In this document: positions 1-40,964 of the stretch, piece by piece | How positions within the stretch are numbered: the stretch's first letter is position 1 | Layout: every line of letters begins with the position of its first letter | IMG/VR virus record: IMGVR_UViG_3300034522_000037 | Location: 1-40,964 of that record | DNA: 40,964 nucleotides | DNA from: a virus | Reading direction: 5' to 3' (one strand) | Notes under the pieces: generated by a model | Seen by the model: only the letters and a program-made list of their open reading frames with translations | The model's database searches: none | What the model was told of the DNA's origin: nothing | Program-made: the position numbers and the translations under genes

Positions 1-127
1 CCGCCGGCGCAGCCGGCGCGGCGTGGCGAATTTCAAGGGCAAAGGTCACTGATAGGCCCTCCTGGCCAAGCAAGGGATGCCGGCGCAAACCGAGCAGCGG
101 CGCGCCGCGGCGTAGATCGCCAGGCGA
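1..127. repeat. Terminal self-overlap, copy 1 (identical to 40838..40964)
   Basis: Read directly: the first 127 nt (ccgccggcgcagccggcgcgg...gtagatcgccaggcga) recur exactly as the last 127 nt, and reading frames run through the junction. This is typical of a circular contig closed by an assembler. Unique length is about 40,837 bp. Confidence 0.95.
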
Positions 128-6299: not shown

Positions 6300-6566
6300 T
6301 TGCAATGTCGTGAGAAAATGGACAGAGCGTCCGCCAAGCTGAGCCGCGCCAGGTCGGCGCTTATGTTGGCCTTGAAGGCCGGCCCGGAAGCATCAAAGGG
6401 CGAGCTGCTCGATGCGATCAGCGCCGCCCTTGATCATGTTGACGCCGCAGATGCGGCCCTGGGAGAGGATGAAATGCGAAGTGTGCGGCCGGGGCCTTTG
6501 GCCCCGGCTGTCGAGCAGGGTCACCCGCGGTTGGTGGTTGCCGCTGCAGCTTGTAACGCCTCGTAA
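6300..6566 (+). CDS. Hypothetical small helical protein (possible SOS-controlled gene)
   Basis: In-frame TTG at 6300 lies 7 nt after ggaggg (ORF-track start 6270; the internal ATG is at 6318). GC3 is high through the first ~55 codons. However, the ORF runs through the hairpin 6488..6508 and overlaps the protelomerase 3' end by 46 nt, so the extent and reality are uncertain. Confidence 0.3.
   Translation: MQCREKMDRASAKLSRARSALMLALKAGPEASKGELLDAISAALDHVDAADAALGEDEMRSVRPGPLAPAVEQGHPRLVVAAAACNAS
6488..6508 (-). terminator. GC hairpin just downstream of the protelomerase stop
   Basis: gccggggcc-ttt-ggccccggc is a 9-bp perfect stem, 13 nt after the minus-strand stop at 6521. There is no clear T-run, so terminator function is inferred only. 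Confidence 0.4.
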
Positions 6567-8203
6567 GCCTCCTCGCGGTTGCGCCCGGTACCGCTGGCCA
6601 CTACAACGCCATTGACCCGCGCCACCGCAACCCACCGCCCCTCGGCCTCCTCTGTCACCCTGACACGTGGTCGAGCTTTGGCAACCTCAACCGGAACCAC
6701 CGGCGCAATATCTTCGACAGGCCGGCCGGCCGTGGCCAAGGCCTCGGCGGCCAGGTCGAGATACTCCTTAATCACCGGCCGGTAACTGCCGACGTTGGTC
6801 GCGATAGCCTTCTGCGAGATCCTCGCGTCGGGCGCAGTCTTGACCGTATCCTTCACCCAGCGGTGGATCTTCTGCAGCGCCTCGCGCCCTGCGATCTGCT
6901 CGTGCTCGTCCAGCGCCTCGAGCGCCTCGAGGCGGCTAGCGTATTTGCTGGCGGTCGCCGCCGGCTTCGCCGGCGCGGTGTAGTCGATCTTGAAGGCCTT
7001 GTAGCTCTCCTGGGTGTCCATATCCTCGTGGCCCAGCATCTCGCGCCAGAAGACCGTCTCGTTGACCTTGGCCCAGCGCGGGTCGCGGGCGAAGTGCAGC
7101 TCGAACACGACCCGCGCCCACAGTGCCCGGCTGTCCTTGAATACGCGCTCCTGGTTGCCGAACACGCGCTTGGCCAGGGTGTTTAGGGTCTTGGCCACTC
7201 GCCGGTTCACCTCGGTATTGTCCAGGTGCTGCAGCTCGAGCACCTCGGGCATGGCCCGCAACTTGGCGAAGGCCTCGAGCACCAGGTCGGCTTTCAGCAG
7301 GGTGTAGATCCGGTAGCTCTCGCCATAGTCAACGCCCCCGCGGCGCTTGGCCTGGCCCGAGAACTCGAGCTCGAACTCGCCGACCTTCTCGAAGCGCCCC
7401 AGCTTGAGGATCTCGATTTCTCGCCGGCCGGTGGCCAGCGCCAGGCCCAGCGCTAGGTAGGAGAAAAACGGGGTCGCGTGGCCGTCGGCACGGATCTCGC
7501 TCGCGCTCAGCAGCTCGCTGATCTTGTCGACCAGCCAGTGGTAGTTGATCGAGACGGTGTTGGTGGCGCGCTGCTCGAGGGTCTCGACGGCATCCGTGGC
7601 CAGCTGCGCCTTGGTCGCCGCCGGCAGGGTCAGGTGGCGCATGATCTCGTGGTCGAGCTTCATACCCTTGACCGCCTCGAAGGCGTCGTCGTCGCGATCC
7701 TGGCGCGCCTGGGCCAGCAGGTCGCGGTGCGCCATGCGCAGCGCGGTGATGTCCTGCAGGTCGGCCATGGCCAGCAGCTGCTCGGCATAGCGCGGGTGGT
7801 GGCGCGCCAGGCGCTCGCAGGTCTCCTCGATGGCGTGGTGCCGCCAGTTCTGCTCGGTCACAGCCTTGCGAACGGTGGTCAAGTAGCGGCGGTAGCTCGA
7901 GGCCTTGAGCTTGTCCGTTTCCTTGCGGCGGCGATCCTCATACAGCTTATTTTTCAGCCGGTCGGCCAGGCGCGACAGGCGCTTGGTCTTGTCGCCGCGG
8001 CTCAGGCTGTCGTCGGCGTCGATGGCCTTGACGTCCTTTATCAGCTGATCGATCAGCGGCTGCAGCTCGACCTTCTGCCGCGTCGCGCCACCGTAATTGC
8101 CAAAGCTAACCCGCTCGCGCTGGTCGATAGCCTCGGCCGCATTGCCGGCCTCGTCACGCACCTGGTCAACCGCTGCGTCTTTTGTTGCTGCCTTCTTAGC
8201 CAT
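6521..8203 (-). CDS. telN: Protelomerase (telomere resolvase, TelN/TelK-like)
   Basis: 560 aa with SD aggagg 5-6 nt upstream. Tyrosine-recombinase-like signature blocks remembered from TelN/TelK are present: LALATGRREIEIL, FKDSRALWARVVF, MLGHEDMDTQESYKAFKIDY. It sits directly beside a large palindrome, as telN sits beside telRL in N15. Confidence 0.85.
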   Translation of the reverse strand: MAKKAATKDAAVDQVRDEAGNAAEAIDQRERVSFGNYGGATRQKVELQPLIDQLIKDVKAIDADDSLSRGDKTKRLSRLADRLKNKLYEDRRRKETDKLKASSYRRYLTTVRKAVTEQNWRHHAIEETCERLARHHPRYAEQLLAMADLQDITALRMAHRDLLAQARQDRDDDAFEAVKGMKLDHEIMRHLTLPAATKAQLATDAVETLEQRATNTVSINYHWLVDKISELLSASEIRADGHATPFFSYLALGLALATGRREIEILKLGRFEKVGEFELEFSGQAKRRGGVDYGESYRIYTLLKADLVLEAFAKLRAMPEVLELQHLDNTEVNRRVAKTLNTLAKRVFGNQERVFKDSRALWARVVFELHFARDPRWAKVNETVFWREMLGHEDMDTQESYKAFKIDYTAPAKPAATASKYASRLEALEALDEHEQIAGREALQKIHRWVKDTVKTAPDARISQKAIATNVGSYRPVIKEYLDLAAEALATAGRPVEDIAPVVPVEVAKARPRVRVTEEAEGRWVAVARVNGVVVASGTGRNREEAYEALQAAAATTNRG

Positions 8204-8261: not shown

Positions 8262-8278
8262 CATACACTGCAAGCCCT
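8262..8278. repeat. Inverted copy of the tel-flanking 17-mer
   Basis: catacactgcaagccct is the reverse complement (15/17) of agggcttggggtgtatg, found twice on the other side of the palindrome. Confidence 0.6.
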
Positions 8279-8332
8279 ATACCATAATCATATACACCTA
8301 TAGCCATAAGTCACGATGCTGGCAGCATGGGG

Positions 8333-8412
8333 ATAGGGCCAAGGGTGCATGCACCCTGGCCCCATTCTATACGTATAGAATGGGGCGCGGGTGCATGCAC
8401 CCTTGGCCCTAT
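8333..8412. repeat. telRL-like telomere resolution site (80-bp palindrome)
   Basis: The symmetry centre lies between 8372 and 8373. The core ccattctatac|gtatagaatgg is a perfect 22-bp palindrome. The 40-nt arms match at 38/40 positions. Each arm also carries the self-complementary 14-mer gggtgcatgcaccc (8343..8356, 8389..8402). As I recall it, the N15 telO core is CCATTATACGCGCGTATAATGG, which has the same length and the same CCATT...AATGG ends. Confidence 0.85.
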
Positions 8413-8420
8413 TATGTTCT

Positions 8421-8461
8421 AGGGCTTGGGGTGTATGCTGTCGCAGGGCTTGGGGTGTATG
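8421..8461. repeat. Two direct copies of a 17-mer flanking the tel palindrome
   Basis: agggcttggggtgtatg occurs at 8421..8437 and 8445..8461 (24-bp period), with an inverted relative at 8262..8278. In addition, tatacacctatagcc (8291..8305) and tatacacctttagcc (8474..8488) are direct repeats on either side, and the half-core cattctatac recurs at 8244..8253. Confidence 0.7.
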
Positions 8462-8734
8462 GATGCGCACACATATACACCTTTAGCCCTTAATGCTTTA
8501 GGGATAACAAGGCAGGAGAGCGGCGCGCGATTGCTGGCAATGGATAGCAGGAGGCAAGGGGCGACAAGTCGAAAAACTACACGACGGCGGCCATGCACCA
8601 TAAGGACGGCGCGTTGCGCCTGCTTGTTTATGGCGCGGGAAACCCGCGCCGGCTGGGGCTTCCAGATCCTGCAGAAAGGACGGGCCATTGCGGGCGGACA
8701 ATGTCGGCGCTATCGCGCCTGCTGTTTTTTCTCT

Positions 8735-8780
8735 TTTGTACTTTTGGCCCGTTGTACTTTTTCGCCAATGGCCCTATATT
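8735..8780 (+). promoter_or_regulatory. parA promoter with a tandem TTGTAC(N)TTTTsGCC motif pair (candidate centromere/operator)
   Basis: tttgtacttttggcc (8735..8749) and gttgtactttttcgcc (8751..8766). TTGTAC (8752..8757), a 17-nt spacer and TATATT (8775..8780) form a sigma70-like promoter 34 nt upstream of the parA ATG. Confidence 0.6.
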
Positions 8781-8813
8781 GTGACCACACCAACAACCGA
8801 GGAGGGCGCGGCA

Positions 8814-9467
8814 ATGGCTGCAAAGGTGATAGCGGTACTCAACCAGAAGGGCGGCACGTCGAAAACGACCACCGCCACCAACGTGGCCAGCTGCCTGGCC
8901 GTTAAGCATGGAAAGCGGGTGCTACTGGTCGACCTAGACCAGCAAGGCTCTGCAACCGACTGGGCGGCGTCCAGGCCAGAGGCCGAGGGCGACGCGGGCC
9001 TGATCCCTACCGTATCCATGGGCAAGGCCCTGGCGCGCGACCTGCCGCGCGTTGCGGGTGGCTATGACTACGTCGTCGTCGACGGCGTGCCGCAAATCAG
9101 CGAGCTGACTGCCGCGGCCATCCGGGCGGCCGACGCGGTACTGATCCCGGTGCAGCCGAGCCAGTACGACATATGGGCGTGCGGCGACCTGGTGCAGCTG
9201 GTGAAAGACCGCCAGGAGATCGCCGACGGCAAGCCGGTGGCGGCGATGATGATCGCGCGGGCAATCCCGGGCACCGTGCTCGAGCGCGACGTGCGCGGCA
9301 TCCTCGAGGCCTACGACCTGCCAATACTGAGCAGCCAGACCTGCCAGCGGCAGTCCTACGCTAGCGGCATCGAGAAGGGCCGCAGCGTCATGGATCTGCC
9401 AGACGACAACAAGGCGCGCCTCGAGATCGAAGCGCTGACCGCCGAACTATTGGAGCTGACCCAATGA
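8814..9467 (+). CDS. parA: ParA/Soj-family partition ATPase (small, type Ib-like)
   Basis: 217 aa from ATG 8814 (aggagg 8 nt upstream; the ORF-track start 8688 reads through the promoter). It has the deviant Walker A VLNQKGGTSKTTTATN, then LLVDLDQQGSAT and YDYVVVDG. Confidence 0.85.
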   Translation: MAAKVIAVLNQKGGTSKTTTATNVASCLAVKHGKRVLLVDLDQQGSATDWAASRPEAEGDAGLIPTVSMGKALARDLPRVAGGYDYVVVDGVPQISELTAAAIRAADAVLIPVQPSQYDIWACGDLVQLVKDRQEIADGKPVAAMMIARAIPGTVLERDVRGILEAYDLPILSSQTCQRQSYASGIEKGRSVMDLPDDNKARLEIEALTAELLELTQ

Positions 9468-9846: not shown

Positions 9847-9996
9847 ATGTCCGCACGCGACTATACCACCGCGGCAAGCCTGCCGCTGCACCTGGCGCGA
9901 GATCCGCGCTATCGCGACCTGGTGCGCCAATTCGCCGAGCAACAGTGCCTGACGGCCTGGCACGGCATCCTGCGCATGATCGGGGAGGCCGCCTGA
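9847..9996 (+). CDS. Hypothetical small protein (49 aa, below the ORF-track cutoff)
   Basis: ATG at 9847 lies 8 nt after gaggg. It reads MSARDYTTAASLPLHLARDPRYRDLVRQFAEQQCLTAWHGILRMIGEAA. Its TGA overlaps the next start (TGATG at 9994..9998), suggesting translational coupling. Confidence 0.45.
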   Translation: MSARDYTTAASLPLHLARDPRYRDLVRQFAEQQCLTAWHGILRMIGEAA

Positions 9997-19650: not shown

Positions 19651-19857
19651 TTACTCCTTAGCGGCGGTTTTCTTGGTGGCAGCGGCGGCGGGCGCCTCGG
19701 CCTCGGTTTCGGTGGCGGTCAGCTTGATGCGGCCGGCGCGCAGCAGCTGCTGCGCCTCGACGTCCATCAGGTCGAGCTTTTCGCCCTTGTTCGCCCAATG
19801 GCCGCCCCCCTTGGGGAATGCGACGAGGACGGTGTAGCTCTTACGAAGTGCAGGCAT
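19651..19857 (-). CDS. Small protein preceding the sheath gene
   Basis: 68 aa (MPALRKSYTVLVAFPKGGGHWANKGEKLDLMDVEAQQLLRAGRIKL...). Only the last 68 codons of the 295-aa track ORF are used, because the rest overlaps the RT gene out of frame. Confidence 0.5.
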   Translation of the reverse strand: MPALRKSYTVLVAFPKGGGHWANKGEKLDLMDVEAQQLLRAGRIKLTATETEAEAPAAAATKKTAAKE

Positions 19858-19946: not shown

Positions 19947-21053
19947 TCAGGCGGGAGCCGGTAGTGCGCTCGCTGCCAGCGGCGGCGAAGCGCGAGCATG
20001 AGGAACAGGAGCATCGAGACCTCCAGACGATCGCGTAAGAATCAGATCCGCCAGCACCCCCTCCACCGTCCTCTGCGCCTGGCAGTGCTTGCTGTAGGCC
20101 AGGAAGCTGTTCACGCGTTGGCGAACGTGCTCCTGATCGATCAGGCCGGCGCGGTATTGGGTGGCCAGCTGCCGGAACGATGCTTTGGCGCGTTTGATGT
20201 TGCGTTTGCGCGGCAGGATGTGGGTTGGCCAGATGCGGTAGCCACAGAAGTCGAGACCGCGCTGCCAGGGATGGATCGCGGTCTTGGGGTTCATCGCCAG
20301 GCATAGGCTGTTGGCCGTGGCGGATAGCGCGCGCATGGCCTCGGCGGCAGCAGCCTTGTTCGGCAGTACGGCGATGAAGTCGTCCATGTAGCGCACGTAA
20401 TACTTGATGCCCAGCTGATCCTTCGCAACGTGGTCGAGGTGGTTCAGCAGGACGTTGGCGCCGAGCTGGCTGGTCAGCGCACCGACCGGCAAGCCGATGC
20501 CAGCTTCGTGGCCGTAGCCTGCGATGATCTGGCGCCACAGCCAGAGGGCGTCGGGGTCGCGCACGGTGCGCTCGATCTCGCGCAGCAGCGAGGCGTGGCG
20601 GATGCTGGAAAAGAAGCGGCTGATGTCGGCCTTGAGTACGTAGCAGCCGTCGCCGTGGTTGCGCTTGGCCACCCGCAGGAAGTGCTGCGCCCTGGCGACA
20701 GCCGCTTGGGTGCCTTTGCCGACGCGACAGGCGTAGGAGTCATGGATGAATTTGCGCTCGAACAGCGGCTCGACCACGCGAACAAGGGCGTGATGAATGA
20801 CGCGATCGGCGAAGGGCGGCGCCTGAATCAGCCGCAGCTTAGGCTCCTTTACAACGAATTCGCGCTGTTTGCCGGGTCGCCAGCTCTTCCACAGCAGGTG
20901 ATTCTGCAGGTTGACCAGATTCTCCTCAACGTTGGCAGAGAAGCGCAGCACCGAGCCGCGCTCGCGCTTGCCGCGCCGGGCTTCCAGGTAGGCGGCGTAA
21001 AGATTCTCGAAACTGGTGATCTGGCCCCATAGGCCAGCGGTTGTAACAGGCAC
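19947..21053 (-). CDS. DGR-type reverse transcriptase
   Basis: 368 aa with a GTG start. RT motifs are present: KLRLIQAPPFADRVIHHAL, YVLKADISRFFSSI, IGLPVGALTSQLGANVLLNHLDH (LGxxxSQ, DGR hallmark), YVRYMDDFIAV (YMDD box), LDFCGYRI. It lies immediately 3' of a template repeat and an Avd-like gene. Confidence 0.9.
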   Translation of the reverse strand: MPVTTAGLWGQITSFENLYAAYLEARRGKRERGSVLRFSANVEENLVNLQNHLLWKSWRPGKQREFVVKEPKLRLIQAPPFADRVIHHALVRVVEPLFERKFIHDSYACRVGKGTQAAVARAQHFLRVAKRNHGDGCYVLKADISRFFSSIRHASLLREIERTVRDPDALWLWRQIIAGYGHEAGIGLPVGALTSQLGANVLLNHLDHVAKDQLGIKYYVRYMDDFIAVLPNKAAAAEAMRALSATANSLCLAMNPKTAIHPWQRGLDFCGYRIWPTHILPRKRNIKRAKASFRQLATQYRAGLIDQEHVRQRVNSFLAYSKHCQAQRTVEGVLADLILTRSSGGLDAPVPHARASPPLAASALPAPA

Positions 21054-21219
21054 AGCAGAAACCTTACCTCATGCGAGGGATAGGGCAGGCGCCGCCGCAT
21101 TGGCCGAGGCTACTAGCCGCGACGCCCTGTAAATCTTCGACAACACGGTCTGGACAAAGGCCCCAAAGGAAACGCACTGGACGCCGGCCCGTGAGCCTGG
21201 CGCCTTCTGGCGGTAATCG
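21054..21219 (-). ncRNA. DGR spacer region between TR and the RT gene (part of the template RNA)
   Basis: 166-nt non-coding gap in the position of the Sp region of the Bordetella BPP-1 DGR RNA. The role is inferred from position only. The 87-aa track ORF across TR and spacer is not considered real. Confidence 0.5.
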
Positions 21220-21331
21220 TTTGCGAGGCGGCCGCCGATGTTCGTGTTCGCGTTCGACGCGGCGTTGTTGACGTTCAGATAGAACAGGCCGGCGTTCGAG
21301 CCGTTGCCGTAGTTGCCACCGTAATAAGCCA
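21220..21331 (-). repeat. DGR template repeat (TR)
   Basis: 21220..21322 aligns without gaps to 22648..22750: 91/103 identical, and all 12 differences fall at TR positions that are A on the minus strand. The conceptual translation is Asn(AAC)-rich: GGNYGNGSNAGLFYLNVNNAASNANTNIGGRLA. Nine further nt (to 21331) are homologous but carry two non-A mismatches. Confidence 0.9.
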
Positions 21332-21344
21332 TTGCCCAATGTTG

Positions 21345-21698
21345 CTATTTGCGTGTTGCGGCGCCCTCGTGCTTGATCCAGGCGCCGACGATGCGGCCGA
21401 TCTCGTTGACGTGGCGCATCCAAACATCGAGGCGCTTGGTGCTGATGTAGCTCAAGCGGTGCGCCTTGCGGATCAGCCCGCGACAGACCTCCAGCTCGAC
21501 GTCCAGGTCGAACAGCGCGGCGGTCTTCTGCTTGCGCTTCCAGGCGACCACCGTCAGCCGCAGCAGACGGTTGATGGTGGCGCGCAGGTCGGCGCAGAGC
21601 AGATGCCGCTCCAGTTTCGGGAACTGGTGCAGCACGGTGTGCGTGTAGGCGTCCAGCTCCTCGAGCTTGGTCAGCAGGACCAGGTGCGCATCACTCAC
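21345..21698 (-). CDS. avd: Avd-like accessory variability determinant
   Basis: 117 aa from the GTG at 21698, which overlaps the upstream stop (GTGA). It is helical and basic. The C-terminus NEIGRIVGAWIKHEGAATRK parallels BPP-1 Avd ...EVGRILGSWIARVNRKG. It ends 13 nt before the TR homology. Confidence 0.75.
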   Translation of the reverse strand: MSDAHLVLLTKLEELDAYTHTVLHQFPKLERHLLCADLRATINRLLRLTVVAWKRKQKTAALFDLDVELEVCRGLIRKAHRLSYISTKRLDVWMRHVNEIGRIVGAWIKHEGAATRK

Positions 21699-22003
21699 GG
21701 CAGCGGCTTCCCCTCGTCGTGCTCGATGCTGCGTTCGCAGTGGCCAGGGTCGAGCTTGTCGAGCAGCTTGCAGAGCACGCAGCCCCACCGCTCGCCGCCT
21801 TTCGCGGCCTTGGCGGCGCGCGAGCTGATGGTCTCGTCCTCGTCGCCGCCGAACGCGGCGTTCGCCAGCTGGTCGTGCGCGATGGCGAGTTTCCAGGCGC
21901 GGTCGCTGCCGGCCAGTACGGCCAGCAGCATCCAGGCGCTGGCGACGATCCCGGCCAGGGCGCAGAGCAGCCACAGGCCGATCATGCGCAGGCGCTTCAC
22001 CAT
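21695..22003 (-). CDS. Small membrane protein of unknown function within the DGR/fibre cassette
   Basis: 102 aa. It has an N-terminal TM helix (MIGLWLLCALAGIVASAWMLLAVLAG) and a Cys-containing C-terminus (WGCVLCKLLDKLDPGHC). It is translationally coupled to both neighbours. Confidence 0.55.
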   Translation of the reverse strand: MVKRLRMIGLWLLCALAGIVASAWMLLAVLAGSDRAWKLAIAHDQLANAAFGGDEDETISSRAAKAAKGGERWGCVLCKLLDKLDPGHCERSIEHDEGKPLP

Positions 22004-22569
22004 GTGATGCCCTCCAGCTCGGCCGGGGTGGTGGCGGCCTCGATCTGATCTTCTGCGGCCTGGCGGCGGCCGATCAGTGCGCCGCTGTGCTCGGCGTAGG
22101 CCTGCATCTTGGCCGCGACGCGGCCAGCCAGGTCGATGACGGTCAGCCCACGGGCGGCGGCGATGGCATCGAGCAGCGGCACGGGGGTATCGGCATCGAG
22201 CGCCAGGGCTTCGGCTTCCTTGACTTGCTGCGGCCAGCTCTTGACCTCGCCCTCGGGGTACGGCGCCGCCAGGGCGGCGAGCGAGGCCTCGCAGTGCTGG
22301 TTGATCTCAGCGAGCTTGCGGGCCTTGGCGTCGCGCAGCGCTTCGGTCTCGGCGGCGGGGTAGTCCAGCGCGCCCAAGTATTCGGCCTGCTGCGGATCGC
22401 AGGCGGGGACCTCGCCGGGCTGGCCCGGCTGATCAATCGCAACGAACAGGCCGTTATCACGGTACTCGGAAGGCACACGCCAGGCGCGCACCACCGCATC
22501 GGTGCCCAGCAGCGGCAGGTTGACGCTGACAGCGCCCACGATCAGCACGGCGTTTTCGATCTTCATCAT
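21997..22569 (-). CDS. Tail-fibre accessory/assembly protein (DUF4376-like C-terminal domain)
   Basis: 190 aa. AKARKLAEINQHCEASLAALAAPYPEGEVKSWPQQVKEAEALALD...PLLDAIAAARGLTVIDLAGRVAAKMQAYAEHSGALIGRRQAAEDQIEAATTPAELEGITW resembles the domain I remember from phage fibre accessory proteins. It lies directly downstream of the fibre gene. Confidence 0.5.
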   Translation of the reverse strand: MMKIENAVLIVGAVSVNLPLLGTDAVVRAWRVPSEYRDNGLFVAIDQPGQPGEVPACDPQQAEYLGALDYPAAETEALRDAKARKLAEINQHCEASLAALAAPYPEGEVKSWPQQVKEAEALALDADTPVPLLDAIAAARGLTVIDLAGRVAAKMQAYAEHSGALIGRRQAAEDQIEAATTPAELEGITW

Positions 22570-22586
22570 TTTGCAAAACTCCTAAA

Positions 22587-22613
22587 GGGGCGCCCGCTCG
22601 GCGGGCTGGCCCC
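22587..22613 (-). other. GC hairpin downstream of VR (candidate DGR target-recognition hairpin and/or terminator)
   Basis: ggggcgcccgc-tcg-gcgggctggcccc: a 5-bp cccgc/gcggg core stem extended by ggggc/gcccc across an asymmetric internal loop. It lies 34 nt 3' of the end of TR/VR homology, between the fibre stop and the next start. Confidence 0.55.
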
Positions 22614-22640
22614 GTTACATGACTCAGGTGACAGGATTCA

Positions 22641-25208
22641 TCACACCTTTGCGAGGCGGCCGCCGATGTACGGGATCGCGTACGACGCGGCGGTGGAGAC
22701 GTACAGATAGAACAGGCCGGCGTACGAGCCGACGCCGTAGTGGCCACCGTGATACGCCACGCAGTTGGCGTTCGCGTAGCTCTGGTCGGCGGTGGTGCCG
22801 TTGGCTTCGGCGCTGTCGGTGGTGGCTGGCACGAACAACGGGCCGAGGTCGAAATCAGCGCCGGCGTTGGCCGACAGGCTCACGGTCCAGCCGTTGGCCG
22901 GGGCGGTGGCGCCGGTGTTGATGTAGCCCTTGTTGCCGTGCTTGTCCCAGATCTCGTAGCGTTTCGCCGCATCGGTGCGCAGGCCGTCGACCATCTGCCA
23001 GACGTTGCCCCACAGGCCGACGATGCCGCGCCAGGTGGCTTGCGCCACGGTGGGGTGGTCGACTACCTGTACGCCAGACGGCGAGTTGTCGACATGGCCG
23101 CGACCGATCAGGGCTTGGCTGTTGGCACCACCCATCTCGATCATGGCCAGCAGCTGAATGGCGCTGAGCTGGTAGTAGTCCCACAGCTGGAAGCCCGACA
23201 CGCCAGAGACGTTCCGCGCGGCGGCGCGACCCTGCATCGTCGGGAAGTCGATCGACACCAGCGGCGTGACGCCCGGCTTGGAGCCCAACTTGGTGCCGTC
23301 CGCCGTGCCCTGGTACTTGCCGACCCAGAACTGGCCGATGGGCGCGCCGGCGCGCATGAACGCCGGATGCAGGGTGAAGCCCGCGGCGGGCTGGTCGCTG
23401 ATCCACCAGGCGCGCTTGCCGGCGTTGGGGCCGGCAGCGATGGTGCCGGCCTTCACGTAAAACGCGGGGATCTTGACCATGGCCTGGCCGTCGATGGTGA
23501 CGTCCTGGATCTGGCCGTAGGTCTGGTGGCTGCTGAAGAATGCCGAGTCGGTCACCTTGGTGGCGCCGTTCTCGTCGATGCGCGCCCAGGTGCCGGAGCC
23601 GCCGCCGGTCGACAGCAGCGCGATGCCCACGATGGTGGCGAACGCGGCCTTGGTGGTGAACTTGCTCTCGCCGGACCATTCCGACCAGCCCTTGGTGACG
23701 CCCTGGTGGCGCACGCGCACGTAGTAGCCGGTTTCGCCCGCTTGCAGCACGCCCGCCGGGACCACCGCTGTCAGCAGGTTTACCGCATCGGTGCCGCTGT
23801 CCCAGACCGGGGCGCTGAAGGTGCCGCCGGCAGTGCGGATTTGCCACTGGCTGGCGGCGTGCGTGTCTTCGCCGCCGGAGACGGTGAACGAGGAGCTGGC
23901 CAGCGTTGGCTGCTCGGGTACGTCCAGCGCATTGCTGACCGGGCCGGTGACGGTCGGCGCGACCACGTAGATGAAATCGGCAGCGGTGGCGAAGCTGGTC
24001 ACGGCGGACCAGTCGGACCAGAGGCCGGCGACGTCCTGGACGCGACCGCGCAGGTAGTAGGTATTGCCGGCCTGCAGCACCTCAGCCGGGACGCGGTACG
24101 ACAGGCCGGAGCCCAGGGCACCGGAGTCGTGCAGCACGGTGGCGAACAGGGCGTCGGTCGAGATCTGGAACTGCACGGCCTGCTGGGCATTGCCGGCGGG
24201 GCTGGTGTAGTTGTCCAGGGCCAGCGTCGGGCGCTCCATGATGCCGACCGAGGCGTCCGCCGGCGAGGCGATGGCCGGTGTGCTTGGGGCCAGCTCCGGG
24301 TTGAGGAAGCCGCCGAGGCCGGTGGGCGTGCCCAGGGCGACGATGTGCGAGAGGGTCAGCGCCTCACCCTCAATGTCCAGCCGCAACCAGCCGTCGCCGC
24401 GCATCGGCAGGATGTATTCGTAGTCCGCCATGCCGGCCGGGATGCTGCCACCGCTGCGGCGCATGGACCAGCCGCACTCCTTCCATGTGCCCTGGTAGGC
24501 ATCGCGGTAGTAGAGCCGTGCCTCGGCAGCACTGAGCGAGCGGCGAATCACCACGGCGCCACCGTCGCTGTCGGTGCCGATGTTGATCGCCTTGGTCAGG
24601 TAGATATCGCCGACCTCGCCGCGGGCCAGCGCAGCGCCCTGTACTGCGAGGCTGGAGCGCGACAGCGTGGCGGTGGCGCTCCAGTCACGCGCCAGGTTGG
24701 CGGTCAGGCGCACGCGCTGGCCGGAGAGGATGTTGGCGATCTGCACCAGGGCGGATACCGGCGCCGGATTGCCCTCTTCGTCCAGGGCGGCGGGATCGGT
24801 CAGCACGTAGTAGTCGCCGGCGCGCAGCGCGCTGGTGTCGGCGACGTCGAGCGAGTCATCCCCATTTATGCCCTGCACCACGGCCACCGGATCGATATCG
24901 ATCAACGTATAACCGGGGGTGAACATCTCGAAGTTGATCGCGTTGCCGCGGTACAGCCAGTCGAGGCTGACGGCGCGCTGCACGGCCACTGAGCTGGTGG
25001 CCTCTACGCCGTCAAGACGCTGATCGAGGGTGGCGACCTGCTCGCCAAGCGTCGCGCCGGTTTCTTCGAGCACGCGCGCGAGGTAGGCGTCGTTATCCAG
25101 CAGCGCCTGGTGCACCGGGTTCCAGGTGTCCGGGTGCGCGACGCTGTTGGTGGTCAGCTGGGGGATGCTTTCGCTCAGCTGCGGGTTGGCGCTGGGGGTC
25201 AGGGGCAT
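22641..25208 (-). CDS. Tail fibre / receptor-binding protein, DGR target (C-type-lectin/FGE-like C-terminal domain)
   Basis: 855 aa with gaggag 7-8 nt upstream. Two tandem ~85-aa FN3-like repeats (23985..24233, 23652..23912). The C-terminal ~280 aa carries GIVGLWGNVWQMVDG (FGE/CLec-like) and ends in the variable repeat ...AYHGGHYGVGSYAGLFYLYVSTAASYAIPYIGGRLAKV. Confidence 0.85.
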   Translation of the reverse strand: MPLTPSANPQLSESIPQLTTNSVAHPDTWNPVHQALLDNDAYLARVLEETGATLGEQVATLDQRLDGVEATSSVAVQRAVSLDWLYRGNAINFEMFTPGYTLIDIDPVAVVQGINGDDSLDVADTSALRAGDYYVLTDPAALDEEGNPAPVSALVQIANILSGQRVRLTANLARDWSATATLSRSSLAVQGAALARGEVGDIYLTKAINIGTDSDGGAVVIRRSLSAAEARLYYRDAYQGTWKECGWSMRRSGGSIPAGMADYEYILPMRGDGWLRLDIEGEALTLSHIVALGTPTGLGGFLNPELAPSTPAIASPADASVGIMERPTLALDNYTSPAGNAQQAVQFQISTDALFATVLHDSGALGSGLSYRVPAEVLQAGNTYYLRGRVQDVAGLWSDWSAVTSFATAADFIYVVAPTVTGPVSNALDVPEQPTLASSSFTVSGGEDTHAASQWQIRTAGGTFSAPVWDSGTDAVNLLTAVVPAGVLQAGETGYYVRVRHQGVTKGWSEWSGESKFTTKAAFATIVGIALLSTGGGSGTWARIDENGATKVTDSAFFSSHQTYGQIQDVTIDGQAMVKIPAFYVKAGTIAAGPNAGKRAWWISDQPAAGFTLHPAFMRAGAPIGQFWVGKYQGTADGTKLGSKPGVTPLVSIDFPTMQGRAAARNVSGVSGFQLWDYYQLSAIQLLAMIEMGGANSQALIGRGHVDNSPSGVQVVDHPTVAQATWRGIVGLWGNVWQMVDGLRTDAAKRYEIWDKHGNKGYINTGATAPANGWTVSLSANAGADFDLGPLFVPATTDSAEANGTTADQSYANANCVAYHGGHYGVGSYAGLFYLYVSTAASYAIPYIGGRLAKV
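22648..22759 (-). repeat. DGR variable repeat (VR)
   Basis: Counterpart of the TR (offset 1428 nt). It occupies the last ~37 codons of the fibre ORF and ends 4 nt before the stop codon. It differs from TR at 12 template-adenine positions, mostly first/second bases of template AAC codons. Confidence 0.9.
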
Positions 25209-25219
25209 GGGGTTACTCC

Positions 25220-25579
25220 TCAGTATTCGAAGACGATGTCGAAGTCCATCTCGCCGTAGGGCTCGAGCTCGATGGGGGCGATTTTTTTACGGGCGACCAG
25301 CACGCCGGAGGCGGTGAAGGCGCCGACCTCGGTGATGGTCTTGCCGCTGACCGCGCTGCCCGGCAGCGTGGCCGAGGCGGTGACCTCCGGGCCGGCCGAG
25401 GTGGCAGTGGCCGGAAGGCGCAGCACCTCGGCCTCGAGGGCGGTGTCTTCGTCGGGCGAATAGGCGCGGGTGCCTTCGCCGAACGCGAGGTAGGCGATGG
25501 GCGACAGCGCCGAGCCGGTCGCGGCAGCGAGGGCGATGTGGCTGCGGTAGGCCGTGGTGGTAAGGATGGGTGACGTCAT
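25220..25579 (-). CDS. Separate tail-fibre N-terminal (baseplate-attachment) domain protein, P2 gpH N-terminus-like
   Basis: 119 aa. ILTTTAYRSHIALAAATGSALSPIAYLAFGEG ... ITEVGAFTASGVLVARKKIAPIELE parallels the P2 gpH N-terminus (ITTAGAAKLAAATAPG...MAVGDG...ELGLYDDAGTLIAV). Confidence 0.55.
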   Translation of the reverse strand: MTSPILTTTAYRSHIALAAATGSALSPIAYLAFGEGTRAYSPDEDTALEAEVLRLPATATSAGPEVTASATLPGSAVSGKTITEVGAFTASGVLVARKKIAPIELEPYGEMDFDIVFEY

Positions 25580-26685
25580 AGGGCTACCTGCTGAGTTGTG
25601 CCGTGCTGGCGGATGCGAGCGGTGATGCGGGCGCGCACGCGCGGCGCGGAAGGCCGGGCGCCGAGCTGCCAGGTGCCGTCGAGCTTGTGCAGGCCGAGGC
25701 GGTCGAGCGCGGCATCGCCGAGGGTGATGCCTTCGTCGAGCGGCCAGCCGCCGAGCGTGAGCGAGTCAAGCCGGGCGCTGCCGTCGAGCGGCAGGTAGCG
25801 CGGCGCGAGGTCCGCCGGCTGAGCCGGCGAGCCGGTACCGACGGTGGCGCGCAGCTGCAGGCGCAGGCGCTGACCCATGCGGGCGTGCCCCTCTGCCCAC
25901 GACCAGCTGCCGACCAGGCGCAGGCCGTCGAGCCGAGTGCTGCCGTCGAGCTGCTGCGTGCCGTCCAGGTGCCGCGGCGCGGTCTCGCCGCCCAGCGACC
26001 AGCAGCCGTCGAGCGTGCGGCGCTGAAGGGGTTGCACGCGCTGGCATTTGGCGAGGCGGATGCGGACTTGTTGAGCAAGGCGGGTGGCGCGGACGGGGCG
26101 GCCGAGGTGGGCGCGGATGGCCGCGACAATTGCCACCAGCTCGCTACGCAGCGGCCCATGCTCCTCGGCCAGCGCGCGGATCTTGCTCTGCTGCTCGCGT
26201 GACCAGGCGCCGTCGGCGGTGTTGATGTGAATGGCGTACTTCGACCAGTGGTCGAGCGGCGTCGCGCGCATCAGGGTCGCACTGCCGTCCGGCGGGGTGA
26301 GCGTCGGCGTGCCGTCCAGTTGCCAGCTGCCGTCAAGCGTCAGTCCGCCAAGCGCCTGCCAGGCGCGCTGGTAGGCGGTGCCGCCCTCGATCGACAGCAC
26401 GTCATAGCCTGCCGCTGCCAGTGCGCGCTTGATCGCGTGACGAGTTCCGGCGAGGCGCTTGACCTCCCACGCGCCCGCCACGGCGGCGCGCTTCTGCGCC
26501 TCCGGGGCCGTGGCGGGCCAGTGAGTGATGCCGCGGTCGGCGGCGAGATACGGCAGGAACTCGGCCGGCGTCTCGGCGGCATTCATCAGCGCCGGGAACG
26601 GCGGGGCGATGCGGTCGATCAGCTCGCCCGCGACCGTGTCGAGAGCGAGCTCGAGCAGCGAGCTGTTGGCCGGCAATAGAGTCAT
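25576..26685 (-). CDS. P2 gpI-like baseplate protein with a long repeat-containing C-terminal extension
   Basis: 369 aa. The N-terminal LLPANSSLLELALDTVAGELIDRIAPPFPALMNAAETPAEFLPYLAADRGITHW is the gpI signature. The C-terminal ~200 aa carries reiterated LDG(S/T)WxL / LDGxxxLDG units. Confidence 0.7.
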   Translation of the reverse strand: MTLLPANSSLLELALDTVAGELIDRIAPPFPALMNAAETPAEFLPYLAADRGITHWPATAPEAQKRAAVAGAWEVKRLAGTRHAIKRALAAAGYDVLSIEGGTAYQRAWQALGGLTLDGSWQLDGTPTLTPPDGSATLMRATPLDHWSKYAIHINTADGAWSREQQSKIRALAEEHGPLRSELVAIVAAIRAHLGRPVRATRLAQQVRIRLAKCQRVQPLQRRTLDGCWSLGGETAPRHLDGTQQLDGSTRLDGLRLVGSWSWAEGHARMGQRLRLQLRATVGTGSPAQPADLAPRYLPLDGSARLDSLTLGGWPLDEGITLGDAALDRLGLHKLDGTWQLGARPSAPRVRARITARIRQHGTTQQVAL

Positions 26686-27683
26686 GGGCTCAGCACCTTG
26701 ATATCAATCGCGATCGAGTCGCAGAAAGGGGCCTCGCCATCGCTGCAGGCGATGGGCGCCAAGGGCTCGAGCAGATCCAGGCGCACCGCGCCGGCGCCGA
26801 TCAGGCGGGCGCGAATGTGATCAGGGTCGACGTACCCTTTCAGGCGATGCTGCGCGGCGGCGTATTCAGCCAGGGCGCTGACAGCCGACCGCTGTGTGAT
26901 CTCGGCGTCAGGGCCGGGGTTGATGTAGGCGGTGGCGCGGATCTGGTACCCGACGATGACTGCCGGGCGAATGTCGACCGTGTCCGTCTCGGGCGAAACG
27001 TCCTCGCGCGCGAAGTGGGCGCGCTGGGCGTCGAGCAGGGCCTCGCTCGGCTCGCCGCGAGCGGCGCGGCTAAGCACCCACACCGTGACGACACCGGGTG
27101 CTGTGCGCACGGGGCGGACGTCCTTCACCTGTGCGGCGAGGGCGTCGGGCTGCAGGGTGTACGTAACCACCACGGTGCCGGGCTCGGGGGCAGTGATCGA
27201 TACGGCGGCGCGGTCGCCGAGGGTCAGCGCCTCGCGGCGGTAGTGCAGCCTCGAGCCAGCGGCCGGCGCGTGAGGCGCCAGGTAGTAGCGCAGGCGCAGA
27301 TCCTCGTCCAGCTCGACCTCAGCGGGTACCGGCGGGAAGGCGTCGGGGTCGCCGGGGGTGACGACGCGGCGCTCGAGGCCCATGTCGGCGGCGCGGGCGT
27401 CGAGGTTCGAGCCCTCTGCCCACCAGGCCAGCATTTGCTTGATTCGCGCGTTGTATTTTCGCTCGTGGCTCTGCAGGCGCAGCGTGAAGGCCTGCAGGAT
27501 CATGGCCAGCAGGTCGCTGTCGTTCTCCAGCGCCTCGGCCAGGCGTGCGGCCTTCTCGGGGTCGCGGGCCTGCACATAGGCCAGCACCTCGGCCTTGAAC
27601 TCGGCGAGCAGCGTCTCGAAGGTTTCGACCTTGACGATCTCGGGCTCGGCCAGCTGGTTGAGCCCCGGAATAAGCATGCTCAC
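26682..27683 (-). CDS. Baseplate J-like protein (P2 gpJ)
   Basis: 333 aa, positioned between the W-like and I-like genes. ATGA-type overlaps indicate operon coupling. Confidence 0.7.
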   Translation of the reverse strand: MSMLIPGLNQLAEPEIVKVETFETLLAEFKAEVLAYVQARDPEKAARLAEALENDSDLLAMILQAFTLRLQSHERKYNARIKQMLAWWAEGSNLDARAADMGLERRVVTPGDPDAFPPVPAEVELDEDLRLRYYLAPHAPAAGSRLHYRREALTLGDRAAVSITAPEPGTVVVTYTLQPDALAAQVKDVRPVRTAPGVVTVWVLSRAARGEPSEALLDAQRAHFAREDVSPETDTVDIRPAVIVGYQIRATAYINPGPDAEITQRSAVSALAEYAAAQHRLKGYVDPDHIRARLIGAGAVRLDLLEPLAPIACSDGEAPFCDSIAIDIKVLSP

Positions 27684-40067: not shown

Positions 40068-40886
40068 TCATTGGTTGTCGTATTCAGCCAGCACAGCCCG
40101 CAAGGCCTCCTCGTCGAGCGCCTGTAGGCCGCTGACCAGGACCTGCCAACGTGGCCGCCAGTGCTGGTCGTAGTTGCTCGTTTTCACGCCCAGGAGCTCG
40201 GCCAGGCGCGCAGCCTGGTACAGCTCCTGGCCGTTGTTCGCGTAGCGCTTGCCGTGCTGCACCGCCAGGTGCGCCAGGCCCTTGAGCTTCTGCAGGGTCT
40301 TGCCCTGCAGCTTGCCGAATGCAGGCGCTACCCGCGCCCACAGCTCGACCACCGCGCCGGCCTCGTCGGCCCAATCTCGAGAGTCGGCGTAGGCATAGCG
40401 CAGCCAGTGGCGGTAGGCCGGGGCCTGGGCGGCGACGATCCGCACCAGACGCGCGTCGTCGAAGGCGGACGGCGGCAACGGGTCAGAGCTGGCCTTTTTC
40501 TTGCGGGTCTCGCTGACAGTCACGCGGGTGGTATCCCTGGCCAGGCTGGCCACGTAATCCAGAGGGAGACGCCGAGCTGGGCCGCCCTCGGCTGGGCACT
40601 CGGCCAGCTCGGCAGCACGCCAGCGCGGGAAGGCGTCACGGGTGCAGCTGGTATCGAAGGCCCCGAGCAGCTTCTGCTCGGGCCTGTCGTCGCGGTAATC
40701 GCCCGGGGCCAGATAGGCGAACATCAGGCGCTCGCGCAGCCACTGCAGATCCTGCAGGGTGACGGCAGGCTTGCGCGGCCGAACCTTGAGCGCGCGCGCG
40801 GCGCTGGGCACCTCCTCGAACGCAACCCAGCAATCAACCGCCGGCGCAGCCGGCGCGGCGTGGCGAATTTCAAGGGCAAAGGTCAC
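40068..40886 (-). CDS. Early-operon protein in the Q (late antiterminator) position; function unproven
   Basis: 272 aa from the GTG at 40886. This GTG overlaps the TraR-like stop (GTGA) and has aggagg 8 nt upstream. The ORF-track ATG at 40925 is less likely. It is the last sizeable early gene before two terminators and the lysis/structural genes. Confidence 0.55.
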   Translation of the reverse strand: MTFALEIRHAAPAAPAVDCWVAFEEVPSAARALKVRPRKPAVTLQDLQWLRERLMFAYLAPGDYRDDRPEQKLLGAFDTSCTRDAFPRWRAAELAECPAEGGPARRLPLDYVASLARDTTRVTVSETRKKKASSDPLPPSAFDDARLVRIVAAQAPAYRHWLRYAYADSRDWADEAGAVVELWARVAPAFGKLQGKTLQKLKGLAHLAVQHGKRYANNGQELYQAARLAELLGVKTSNYDQHWRPRWQVLVSGLQALDEEALRAVLAEYDNQ

Positions 40887-40964
40887 TGATAGGCCCTCCT
40901 GGCCAAGCAAGGGATGCCGGCGCAAACCGAGCAGCGGCGCGCCGCGGCGTAGATCGCCAGGCGA
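40838..40964. repeat. Terminal self-overlap, copy 2 (identical to 1..127)
   Basis: Same 127-nt string as 1..127, compared base by base. Confidence 0.95.

Follow-up and report, generated by a model that had tools for sequence, protein, structure and literature searches.

A diversity-generating retroelement in the tail-fibre region

We analyzed a 40,964-nt stretch of viral DNA (IMG/VR record IMGVR_UViG_3300034522_000037, positions 1 to 40,964), referred to in full as the window, in which a block of minus-strand genes carries a diversity-generating retroelement (DGR). Read in the direction of the genes, the block consists of a tail-fibre gene of 855 codons, genes for proteins of 190 and 102 residues, the gene for the accessory variability determinant (Avd), a template repeat (TR), a spacer, and the gene for a 368-residue reverse transcriptase (RT). 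The variable repeat (VR) forms the end of the fibre gene and is followed by a short conserved segment and a GC-rich hairpin (Table 1). The original prediction, made from the letters of the sequence without database searches, had placed the open reading frames (ORFs) of this block on the minus strand and counted 166 nt between TR and RT; every ORF lies where it was claimed, and the spacer (21054..21219) has exactly that length. The block had been interpreted as a mutagenic-retrohoming DGR, and this is now supported by the comparison of TR and VR, the RT, Avd, a lectin fold in the fibre, the spacer RNA, the hairpin, and relatives that share the TR and differ in their VRs nearly always at A sites. 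We consider it very likely that the locus is a complete DGR, one that uses mutagenic retrohoming to vary the tip with which a phage tail fibre binds its receptor.

The template and variable repeats diverge at adenines

An ungapped alignment of the TR (21220..21322) and VR (22648..22750) on the minus strand, at an offset of 1428 nt, has 91 identical positions out of 103. The 12 mismatches all fall at TR adenines of the coding strand, which number 26 in this 103-nt core (hypergeometric P = 6.3e-9). The same 91 identities and 12 mismatches had been reported from the sequence alone, no non-adenine mismatch lies in the core, and the two peptide strings quoted for the TR and the fibre are exact. Most diversified positions had also been described as AAC codons; the VR is changed at nine of nine in-tract AAC codons and at one ACG. 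The TR contains 22 mutable adenines within 21239..21314, provided by nine AAC codons together with TAC, TAT, ACG, and ATC, and these allow 4^22 DNA variants encoding ~9.8e12 peptides. The 17 nt at the TR 3' end, GGCGGCCGCCTCGCAAA (21220..21236), are protected from change.

The limits of the rewritten tract emerge from 14 loci of the cassette family. Adenines vary only from relative position (rel) -94 to rel -19, and the tract actually rewritten spans ~22667..22742. Within it, TR and VR differ in 145 of 306 adenine cells versus 3 of 870 non-adenine cells. The three adenines of the terminal GCAAA, which belong to the protected 17 nt, show a TR/VR difference in 1 of 42 cells. At the 5' edge, the homology between the repeats runs on for 9 nt, to 21331/22759, and two non-adenine mismatches are found there in the window, T>G at 21327 (rel -107) and T>C at 21323 (rel -103). 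TR and VR are unlike at rel -107 in 13 of the 14 relatives; at rel -103, C is invariant among the VRs of the 14 loci, and the TRs are split evenly between T (seven) and A (seven). The adenines beside these mismatches (rel -105 and rel -102) are invariant. These edge positions are thus outside the rewritten tract, so they do not refute the DGR interpretation. A search of the window with the adenine-masked TR, full-length and in halves and on both strands, returned no second VR. Gene calls on several public contigs include an 87-codon ORF covering the TR and spacer (21069..21332, minus strand); it is probably spurious, because its frame is closed in the related loci L013 and L014 and the region shows RNA-type covariation.

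The reverse transcriptase and Avd are of the DGR type

Both RT motifs listed in the original prediction are present and intact, namely YMDD, within YVRYMDDF, and the segment IGLPVGALTSQLGANVLL, which contains VGALTSQ, a form of the [I/V/L]GxxxSQ signature of DGR RTs (PMC7826257). An arginine occupies the position equivalent to R74 of bRT, the RT of the phage BPP-1 DGR, and a valine the position of I181; in bRT, these two residues promote adenine misincorporation (PMC7826257). The class of the enzyme was assigned by ranking pairwise scores against solved structures. The best of these is bRT (8ub7; 2.4e-50, 175 bits), and the group II intron RT structures follow at 87 bits (1.6e-23), ~88 bits lower. 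NCBIfam yields only sub-threshold matches, to a group II maturase model (129.9 bits, cut-off 300) and to Drt3a, and PADLOC detects generic RT-level similarity to defence RTs and nothing more. Relatives of the RT are abundant, with 4181 proteins at E < 1e-20, and they occur across many beta- and gamma-proteobacterial genomes. An identical RT is already in GenBank under the name 'alpha/beta hydrolase' (HAN51647.1), and homologues carry the source labels 'retron-type' or 'group II intron' RT.

The gene upstream of the TR, described earlier as Avd-like, scores 93.7 bits with the NCBIfam model DivGenRetAVD, above its curated cut-off of 80. Translation starts at a GTG that overlaps the upstream stop codon as GTGA. 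A longer mechanical ORF of 209 residues (21345..21974) was dropped in favor of the 117-residue Avd with this GTG start on the upstream stop.

The fibre displays the variable repeat on a predicted lectin domain

The fibre gene lies downstream of the baseplate J and I genes and of a 119-residue ORF that resembles a fibre N-terminus. Pfam identifies two Ig/FN3-like repeats (Ig_Rha78A_N) in the protein, and the C-terminal 300 residues form, according to a structural model, a C-type-lectin fold as used by DGR targets. The AlphaFold2 model of res. 556–855, computed from an 80-sequence alignment, has a pLDDT of 96.6 and a pTM of 0.94. Searched against the PDB with Foldseek, it matches TaqVP best (5vf4; 3e-16, TM 0.63), followed by TvpA (2y3c), Mtd (1yu0-1yu4), and then PvdO and FGE. 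The sole sequence-level PDB match of the domain, found with phmmer, is also to 5vf4 (3e-4). The consensus of the homologues of this domain is variable at the residues that AAC codons encode in the TR. The fibre homologues WP_392520610.1 and WP_285586871.1 are named 'glycoside hydrolase family 78 protein'.

The variable repeat is hypervariable among relatives

Four of the five close relatives have the same TR as the window: it is identical over 121 nt in the window, L001, and L002, and over 115 nt in the window, L105, and L106, the latter two being ~92-94% identical to the window in DNA. The VRs of these same-TR relatives contain 10-15 differences per 115 nt, nearly all at TR adenines. The same comparison finds 0 differences in the TR and 2-4 in the spacer, against a background of ~6%. 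Conservation of the TR and spacer far above that of the surrounding DNA points to continued selection for function.

The fibre population gives a similar picture at the protein level. Clustering at 90% identity places the window fibre in a group of 28 proteins, drawn from Pseudomonas/Stutzerimonas genomes and metagenomes. Among the full-length members listed for this cluster, 14 in number, overall identity is 92-97%, yet no two VRs are the same. Columns in which at least five residue types occur are confined to res. 823-847, at AAC-coded positions and one TAC, and the density of differences is 24-36% within the VR versus 1.5-7% elsewhere.

A structured spacer RNA and a hairpin accompany the repeats

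The spacer (Sp) between the TR and RT shows RNA covariation. Its predicted fold contains 11 compensatory pairs among 12 cassettes, compared with 4.3 +/- 1.3 in column shuffles, 0 of 500 of which reach 11, and 1-4 in slid controls. A predicted 9-bp stem with bulged bases and a YACG tetraloop (21180..21204) lies 17 nt past the TR and fits the Avd-binding stem-loops described for DGRs in Pseudomonadota (bioRxiv 10.1101/2023.10.23.563531). A long stem-loop is predicted at 21087..21127. A duplex is predicted between the GC-rich TR 3' end (21217..21236) and an invariant spacer segment (21153..21170); since this TR:Sp duplex is invariant, covariation neither supports nor contradicts the pairing. The protection of the GCAAA adenines agrees with it, and would follow from a cDNA start immediately 5' of the paired region. 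Scanning the entire window for Rfam families and tRNAs returned nothing, including no group II intron or retron RNA and no curated family at the gathering threshold on the spacer.

At their 3' ends, the VR and TR share a GC-rich CGGCGGCCGCCTCGC element, after which come flanks that are unlike between the two repeats and are each kept in the 14 loci. These flanks are far more divergent from each other than the initiation of mutagenic homing (IMH) and IMH* elements of BPP-1. By analogy with BPP-1, the 34-nt segment that follows the VR is a candidate directional, IMH-like target signal (PMC3240598). The hairpin beyond this segment is found in 14 of 14 family loci, and its inner stem covaries (GCCCGC, GCGCGC, or CCCCGC) with the loop remaining CRA; it may be the analogue of the BPP-1 hairpin/cruciform (PMC3240598). 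The hairpins of phage DGR targets have a GC stem of 7-10 bp and a conserved 4-nt GRNA loop and lie 4-34 bp from the VR (PMC3240598). An ordinary terminator was judged less likely, as only three Ts come after the hairpin and the next ribosome-binding site and start codon are within ~20 nt.

Proposed mechanism and alternative explanations

In the mechanism that we propose, the TR and the 166-nt spacer would be transcribed into one RNA, and an RT-Avd complex would bind the folded spacer, with Avd-RNA binding assumed to occur as in BPP-1. The GC-rich 3' end of the TR would pair with the spacer, so that cDNA would start just 5' of this duplex, at a priming site modeled on that of BPP-1, and run back along the TR. 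Copying would be random at adenines and faithful at other bases. The resulting cDNA would replace ~76 nt of the VR (22667..22742), targeted by the shared GC-rich end, the 34-nt VR-specific flank, and the hairpin, to which we ascribe the role it has in BPP-1. The outcome would be ~1e13 fibre-tip peptides on a fixed C-type-lectin scaffold, permitting host-range switching if the fibre tip binds the receptor as it does in BPP-1. The anatomy of the cassette, the family memberships of its genes, the adenine-only divergence of the repeats, the covariation of the RNA, and the hypervariability of the fibre population are direct observations of this analysis.

Several points weigh against this interpretation. 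The evidence for ongoing activity in this particular genome is comparative. A BPP-1-like 'cPRT stop' duplex, formed between the region upstream of the TR and the distal spacer, showed no consistent pairing across loci. The hairpin loop, CRA, is 3 nt long where 4-nt GRNA is the consensus, and the hairpin's spacing of 34 nt from the VR is at the top of the 4-34 bp range (PMC3240598); the CRA loop is a departure of minor weight. Pfam and NCBIfam give no match to fibre res. 556–855 even at E = 1; sequence profiles being silent on the C-terminus, the fold was taken from structure prediction, and its assignment is that of a model. Finally, the 855-residue protein is assigned as a receptor-binding fibre from gene position and homology.

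The first of these points invites the explanation that the DGR is structurally intact but inactive in this genome, and that the VR differences date from earlier homing and have been frozen since. The relatives are ~6% apart in DNA, so the VR divergence could be old. We regard this as unlikely, given that the RT, Avd, TR, spacer, and hairpin are all intact, that the TR and spacer differ at 0 and 2-4 positions against the ~6% background, and that a different VR is found in each of 14 near-identical fibres. It is also conceivable that the diversified protein is another tail-associated or a glycan-binding accessory protein, and that the DGR tunes something besides host range. The glycoside hydrolase family 78 names given to some homologues by NCBI/UniRef speak for an accessory role, and they reflect the Ig_Rha78A_N repeats; the Rha78A match is limited to these Ig-like repeats, with no catalytic domain. 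The gene occupies a P2-type fibre slot, after gpJ, gpI, and the fibre N-terminal-like ORF, PHROG 5302 is a tail protein family, and the predicted fold matches Mtd, the receptor-binding protein of BPP-1. In addition, two DGR-less relatives, L090 and L091, lack the window fibre and have a different sequence in the slot. Taken with these observations, an accessory role is very unlikely.

We give almost no credence to a third explanation, that the RT is of a different retroelement or defence type (group II intron, retron, DRT, or Abi) and the repeat a plain duplication. It could draw on the group II maturase and Drt3a matches and on the 'retron-type' and 'group II intron' annotations of homologues; the NCBIfam matches are all under curated cut-offs, and bRT leads the solved relatives by ~88 bits. 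The enzyme has the DGR motif VGALTSQ in place of QGxxxSP (PMC7826257), the window has no Rfam match to a group II intron or retron RNA, and Avd adjoins the TR. Moreover, duplication followed by drift does not yield adenine-only mismatches. 

The host element is a phiHAP-1-like telomere phage

Judged by its genes, the host element is a temperate, myovirus-type, phiHAP-1-like telomere phage of Pseudomonas/Stutzerimonas. The original prediction had called it a protelomerase phage-plasmid, in keeping with the TelK-domain protelomerase, the palindrome, and the RepA-like (phrog_4913 at 2.5e-295) and ParA genes identified here. The palindrome sits between the protelomerase gene and parA, immediately upstream of the former, and is a likely telomere-resolution site, centered at 8372/8373. 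A palindrome adjoining the protelomerase gene is a likeness to Hapunavirus-like telomere phages (phiHAP-1 and Vibrio phage VP882). Positions 1..127 of the window are an exact repeat of 40838..40964, so the assembly closes as a circle with a unit of 40,837 bp. Such a closure could arise if the DNA of the linear plasmid prophage is circularly permuted relative to the cos-ended DNA of the virion, as reported for other telomere phages.

The Halomonas phage phiHAP-1 has the same gene order, with identities to the window of 68% for the terminase, 63% for the sheath, 58% for the protelomerase, and 51% for RepA, but it has no RT, Avd, or lectin-type fibre, and other genes fill its fibre slot. The nearest backbones found are those of Stutzerimonas kunmingensis (L091; NZ_JACXXG010000036.1, a 37.6-kb contig) and Pseudomonas sp. 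HS-2 (L090), which point to Stutzerimonas/Pseudomonas as the host. L091 is 99% identical to the window in the sheath, 96% in the capsid, and 70% in the protelomerase; in L090, a protelomerase match is absent within its 10-kb flanks. Neither backbone has an RT, Avd, or a window-type fibre.

Table 1 Features of the DGR, its neighbors, and the host element (positions refer to the window).
Feature	Coordinates	Strand	Basis or remarks
DGR reverse transcriptase, 368 aa	19947..21053	minus	Full Pfam RVT_1 domain, 5e-21; PHROG 1423 (phage RT family) 4e-125
Spacer (Sp) RNA, 166 nt, between TR and RT	21054..21219	minus	RNAalifold, 12 loci
TR	21220..21331	minus	Identical in window, L001, L002, L105, L106
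Avd, 117 aa	21345..21698	minus	Pfam bAvd 4e-25; PHROG 3206 'Avd protein of DGR' 1.6e-31
102-aa gene	21695..22003	minus	Hydrophobic N-terminus; PHROG 34710
190-aa gene	21997..22569	minus	PHROG 2618; homologues with PF27318 HI1402_helical
GC-rich hairpin, GGGGC-CA-GCCCGC-CGA-GCGGGC-GCCCC	22587..22613	minus	DNA fold; 34 nt from VR
34-nt post-VR segment, contains stop codon	22614..22647	minus	Conserved in 14 loci though mostly non-coding
VR	22648..22759	minus	Last 37 codons of fibre (codons 817-853 of 855)
Fibre C-terminal domain, res. 556-855	22644..23543	minus	Predicted C-type-lectin/FGE fold, displays VR
Tail-fibre protein, 855 aa (DGR target)	22641..25208	minus	PHROG 5302 'tail protein', res. 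572-853, 6e-36
gpI-like gene	25576..26685		
gpJ-like gene	26682..27683		
68-aa ORF	19651..19857	minus	Between RT and sheath gene; kept in L103, L105
Protelomerase	6521..8203	minus	Pfam ResT-TelK_cat 7.5e-29, TelK_N, TelK_stirrup
80-bp palindrome	8333..8412		95% complementary, zero spacer; flanking inverted repeats, region 8262..8437
parA	8688..9467		ParA

Two genes separate the target from avd. The 190-residue product is probably a fibre assembly or accessory protein; its gene is syntenic in every related cassette and travels with the fibre. For the 102-residue product, the label 'membrane protein' comes solely from its hydrophobic N-terminus. A homologue with 62% identity precedes the sheath gene in the DGR-less L091, so this gene belongs to the tail module and is not DGR-specific. 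The 68-residue ORF next to the RT gene is labeled 'Ribonuclease G/E' by one source.

The fibre and DGR form an exchangeable module

Megablast of the 5.3-kb fibre-DGR region returned no match in the phage collection and only 465 nt at 72% in the plasmid collection, so that neither holds a close annotated relative. A longer alignment was obtained with L106 (JGI 3300027365, Ga0209300_1000192), a P2-like prophage contig with gpR/S/V/W/J/I, GpE, and a holin. L106 aligns with the window only over a 6.3-kb fibre-chaperone-Avd-TR-RT block (20050..26353), at 92% nt identity, and the flanks are unalignable. The block contains the C-terminal end of the gpI-like gene, the 119-residue ORF, the fibre, the 190- and 102-residue genes, Avd, the TR and spacer, and the RT. 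As L106 shares only the fibre-to-RT block and the nearest backbones are without it, we regard the block as an exchangeable accessory module.

The template has also changed in one relative. In the sister genome L103 (GCA_003456655.1, DMQC01000017.1; ~94% nt identity), the TR, near 9880, has TCC in place of its first AAC codon, with both changes at adenines, and the VR, near 8452, bears TCC like its TR. The L103 template itself has been altered, either by self-homing or by VR-to-TR conversion. It is possible, though doubtful at present, that the 6.3-kb block acts as a self-contained cassette for host range, passing among temperate phages with unrelated backbones (a telomere phage-plasmid in the window, a P2-like prophage in L106), and that its template is itself rewritable; if so, occasional self-homing or VR-to-TR conversion would reshape which positions stay mutable. 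In seven further loci (L015, L018, L019, L020, L022, L023, and L024), the RTs are 69-73% identical to that of the window, and the TR/VR pair with the strongest A bias involves a different repeat, BPP-1-like and situated ~1.87 kb upstream of the RT instead of directly in front of it, which may reflect a different cassette layout or two templates.

The known DGR mechanism is unchanged by these findings, which provide the phiHAP-1-like group of Pseudomonas/Stutzerimonas telomere phages with a well-resolved DGR. Close homologues of the fibre and RT are present in cultured strains (S. stutzeri and Stutzerimonas sp. FeSN7), and these strains could serve as a gamma-proteobacterial model besides BPP-1. 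Public names can be corrected as well, since 'alpha/beta hydrolase' for the RT and 'glycoside hydrolase family 78 protein' for the fibre look like mis-annotations.

Comparison with known DGRs

Telomere phages were already known to carry DGRs. The original prediction had mentioned a DGR in Vibrio phage VHML and cautioned that the combination might have a precedent, and it does: VHML is among the listed phage DGRs (PMC3240598; PMC10612066), and the VHML-like VP58.5, a temperate marine telomere phage (PMC10612081), has both a protelomerase and a DGR. Like the window, VP58.5 (Vhmlvirus) is of the myovirus type, encodes a protelomerase, ParA, and a RepA-like gene, and carries its DGR at the equivalent place, flanked by the tail-fibre genes and the sheath gene, with an annotated Avd, RT, and FGE-type target and an A-biased TR/VR pair. 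Its RT and Avd are 40% and 38% identical to those of the window. The backbone is of a different genus, with a sheath identity of 30%, and tblastn of the window protelomerase against VP58.5 gives no match at 1e-5. Its target is a separate 410-residue FGE-sulfatase-type protein recognized by Pfam, unlike the fusion in the window fibre; moreover, no genes lie between target and avd, and the annotated RT ORF touches or overlaps the TR.

The best structural match to the predicted fibre domain is the Thermus aquaticus protein TaqVP (5vf4), which likewise places its VR at the C-terminus of a C-type-lectin fold. The two domains are ~20% identical, and TaqVP is chromosomal, non-phage, and without a fibre shaft.

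A close parallel is the prototype, the DGR of Bordetella phage BPP-1 (mtd-avd-TR-brt), which has the same parts in the same order and apparently works alike. Both elements transfer changes from TR to VR specifically at adenines, into the last codons of a tail-fibre gene, and both have an AAC-rich TR with 22 mutable adenines (PMC7826257 for BPP-1) and a repertoire of ~1e13 variants. They also have in common an RT with the DGR motif and the R74 residue (the I181 position being V in the window), Avd, a GC-rich shared 3' end, a hairpin past the VR, and a structured spacer RNA that pairs, by prediction in the window, with the TR 3' end. The differences concern sequence and layout. The window RT is only 39% identical to that of BPP-1, the 190- and 102-residue genes stand between target and avd, and a distance of 1428 nt separates VR from TR. 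Fibre shaft and lectin domain are fused in an 855-residue target, compared with 381 residues for BPP-1 Mtd, and the hairpin, 34 nt beyond the VR, is closed by a 3-nt CRA loop, compared with a 4-nt GRNA loop at 4 nt. The carriers differ as well, BPP-1 being podovirus-like and the window phage a myovirus-type telomere phage. By every testable feature the element belongs to the DGR family, and its differences from BPP-1 are modest.

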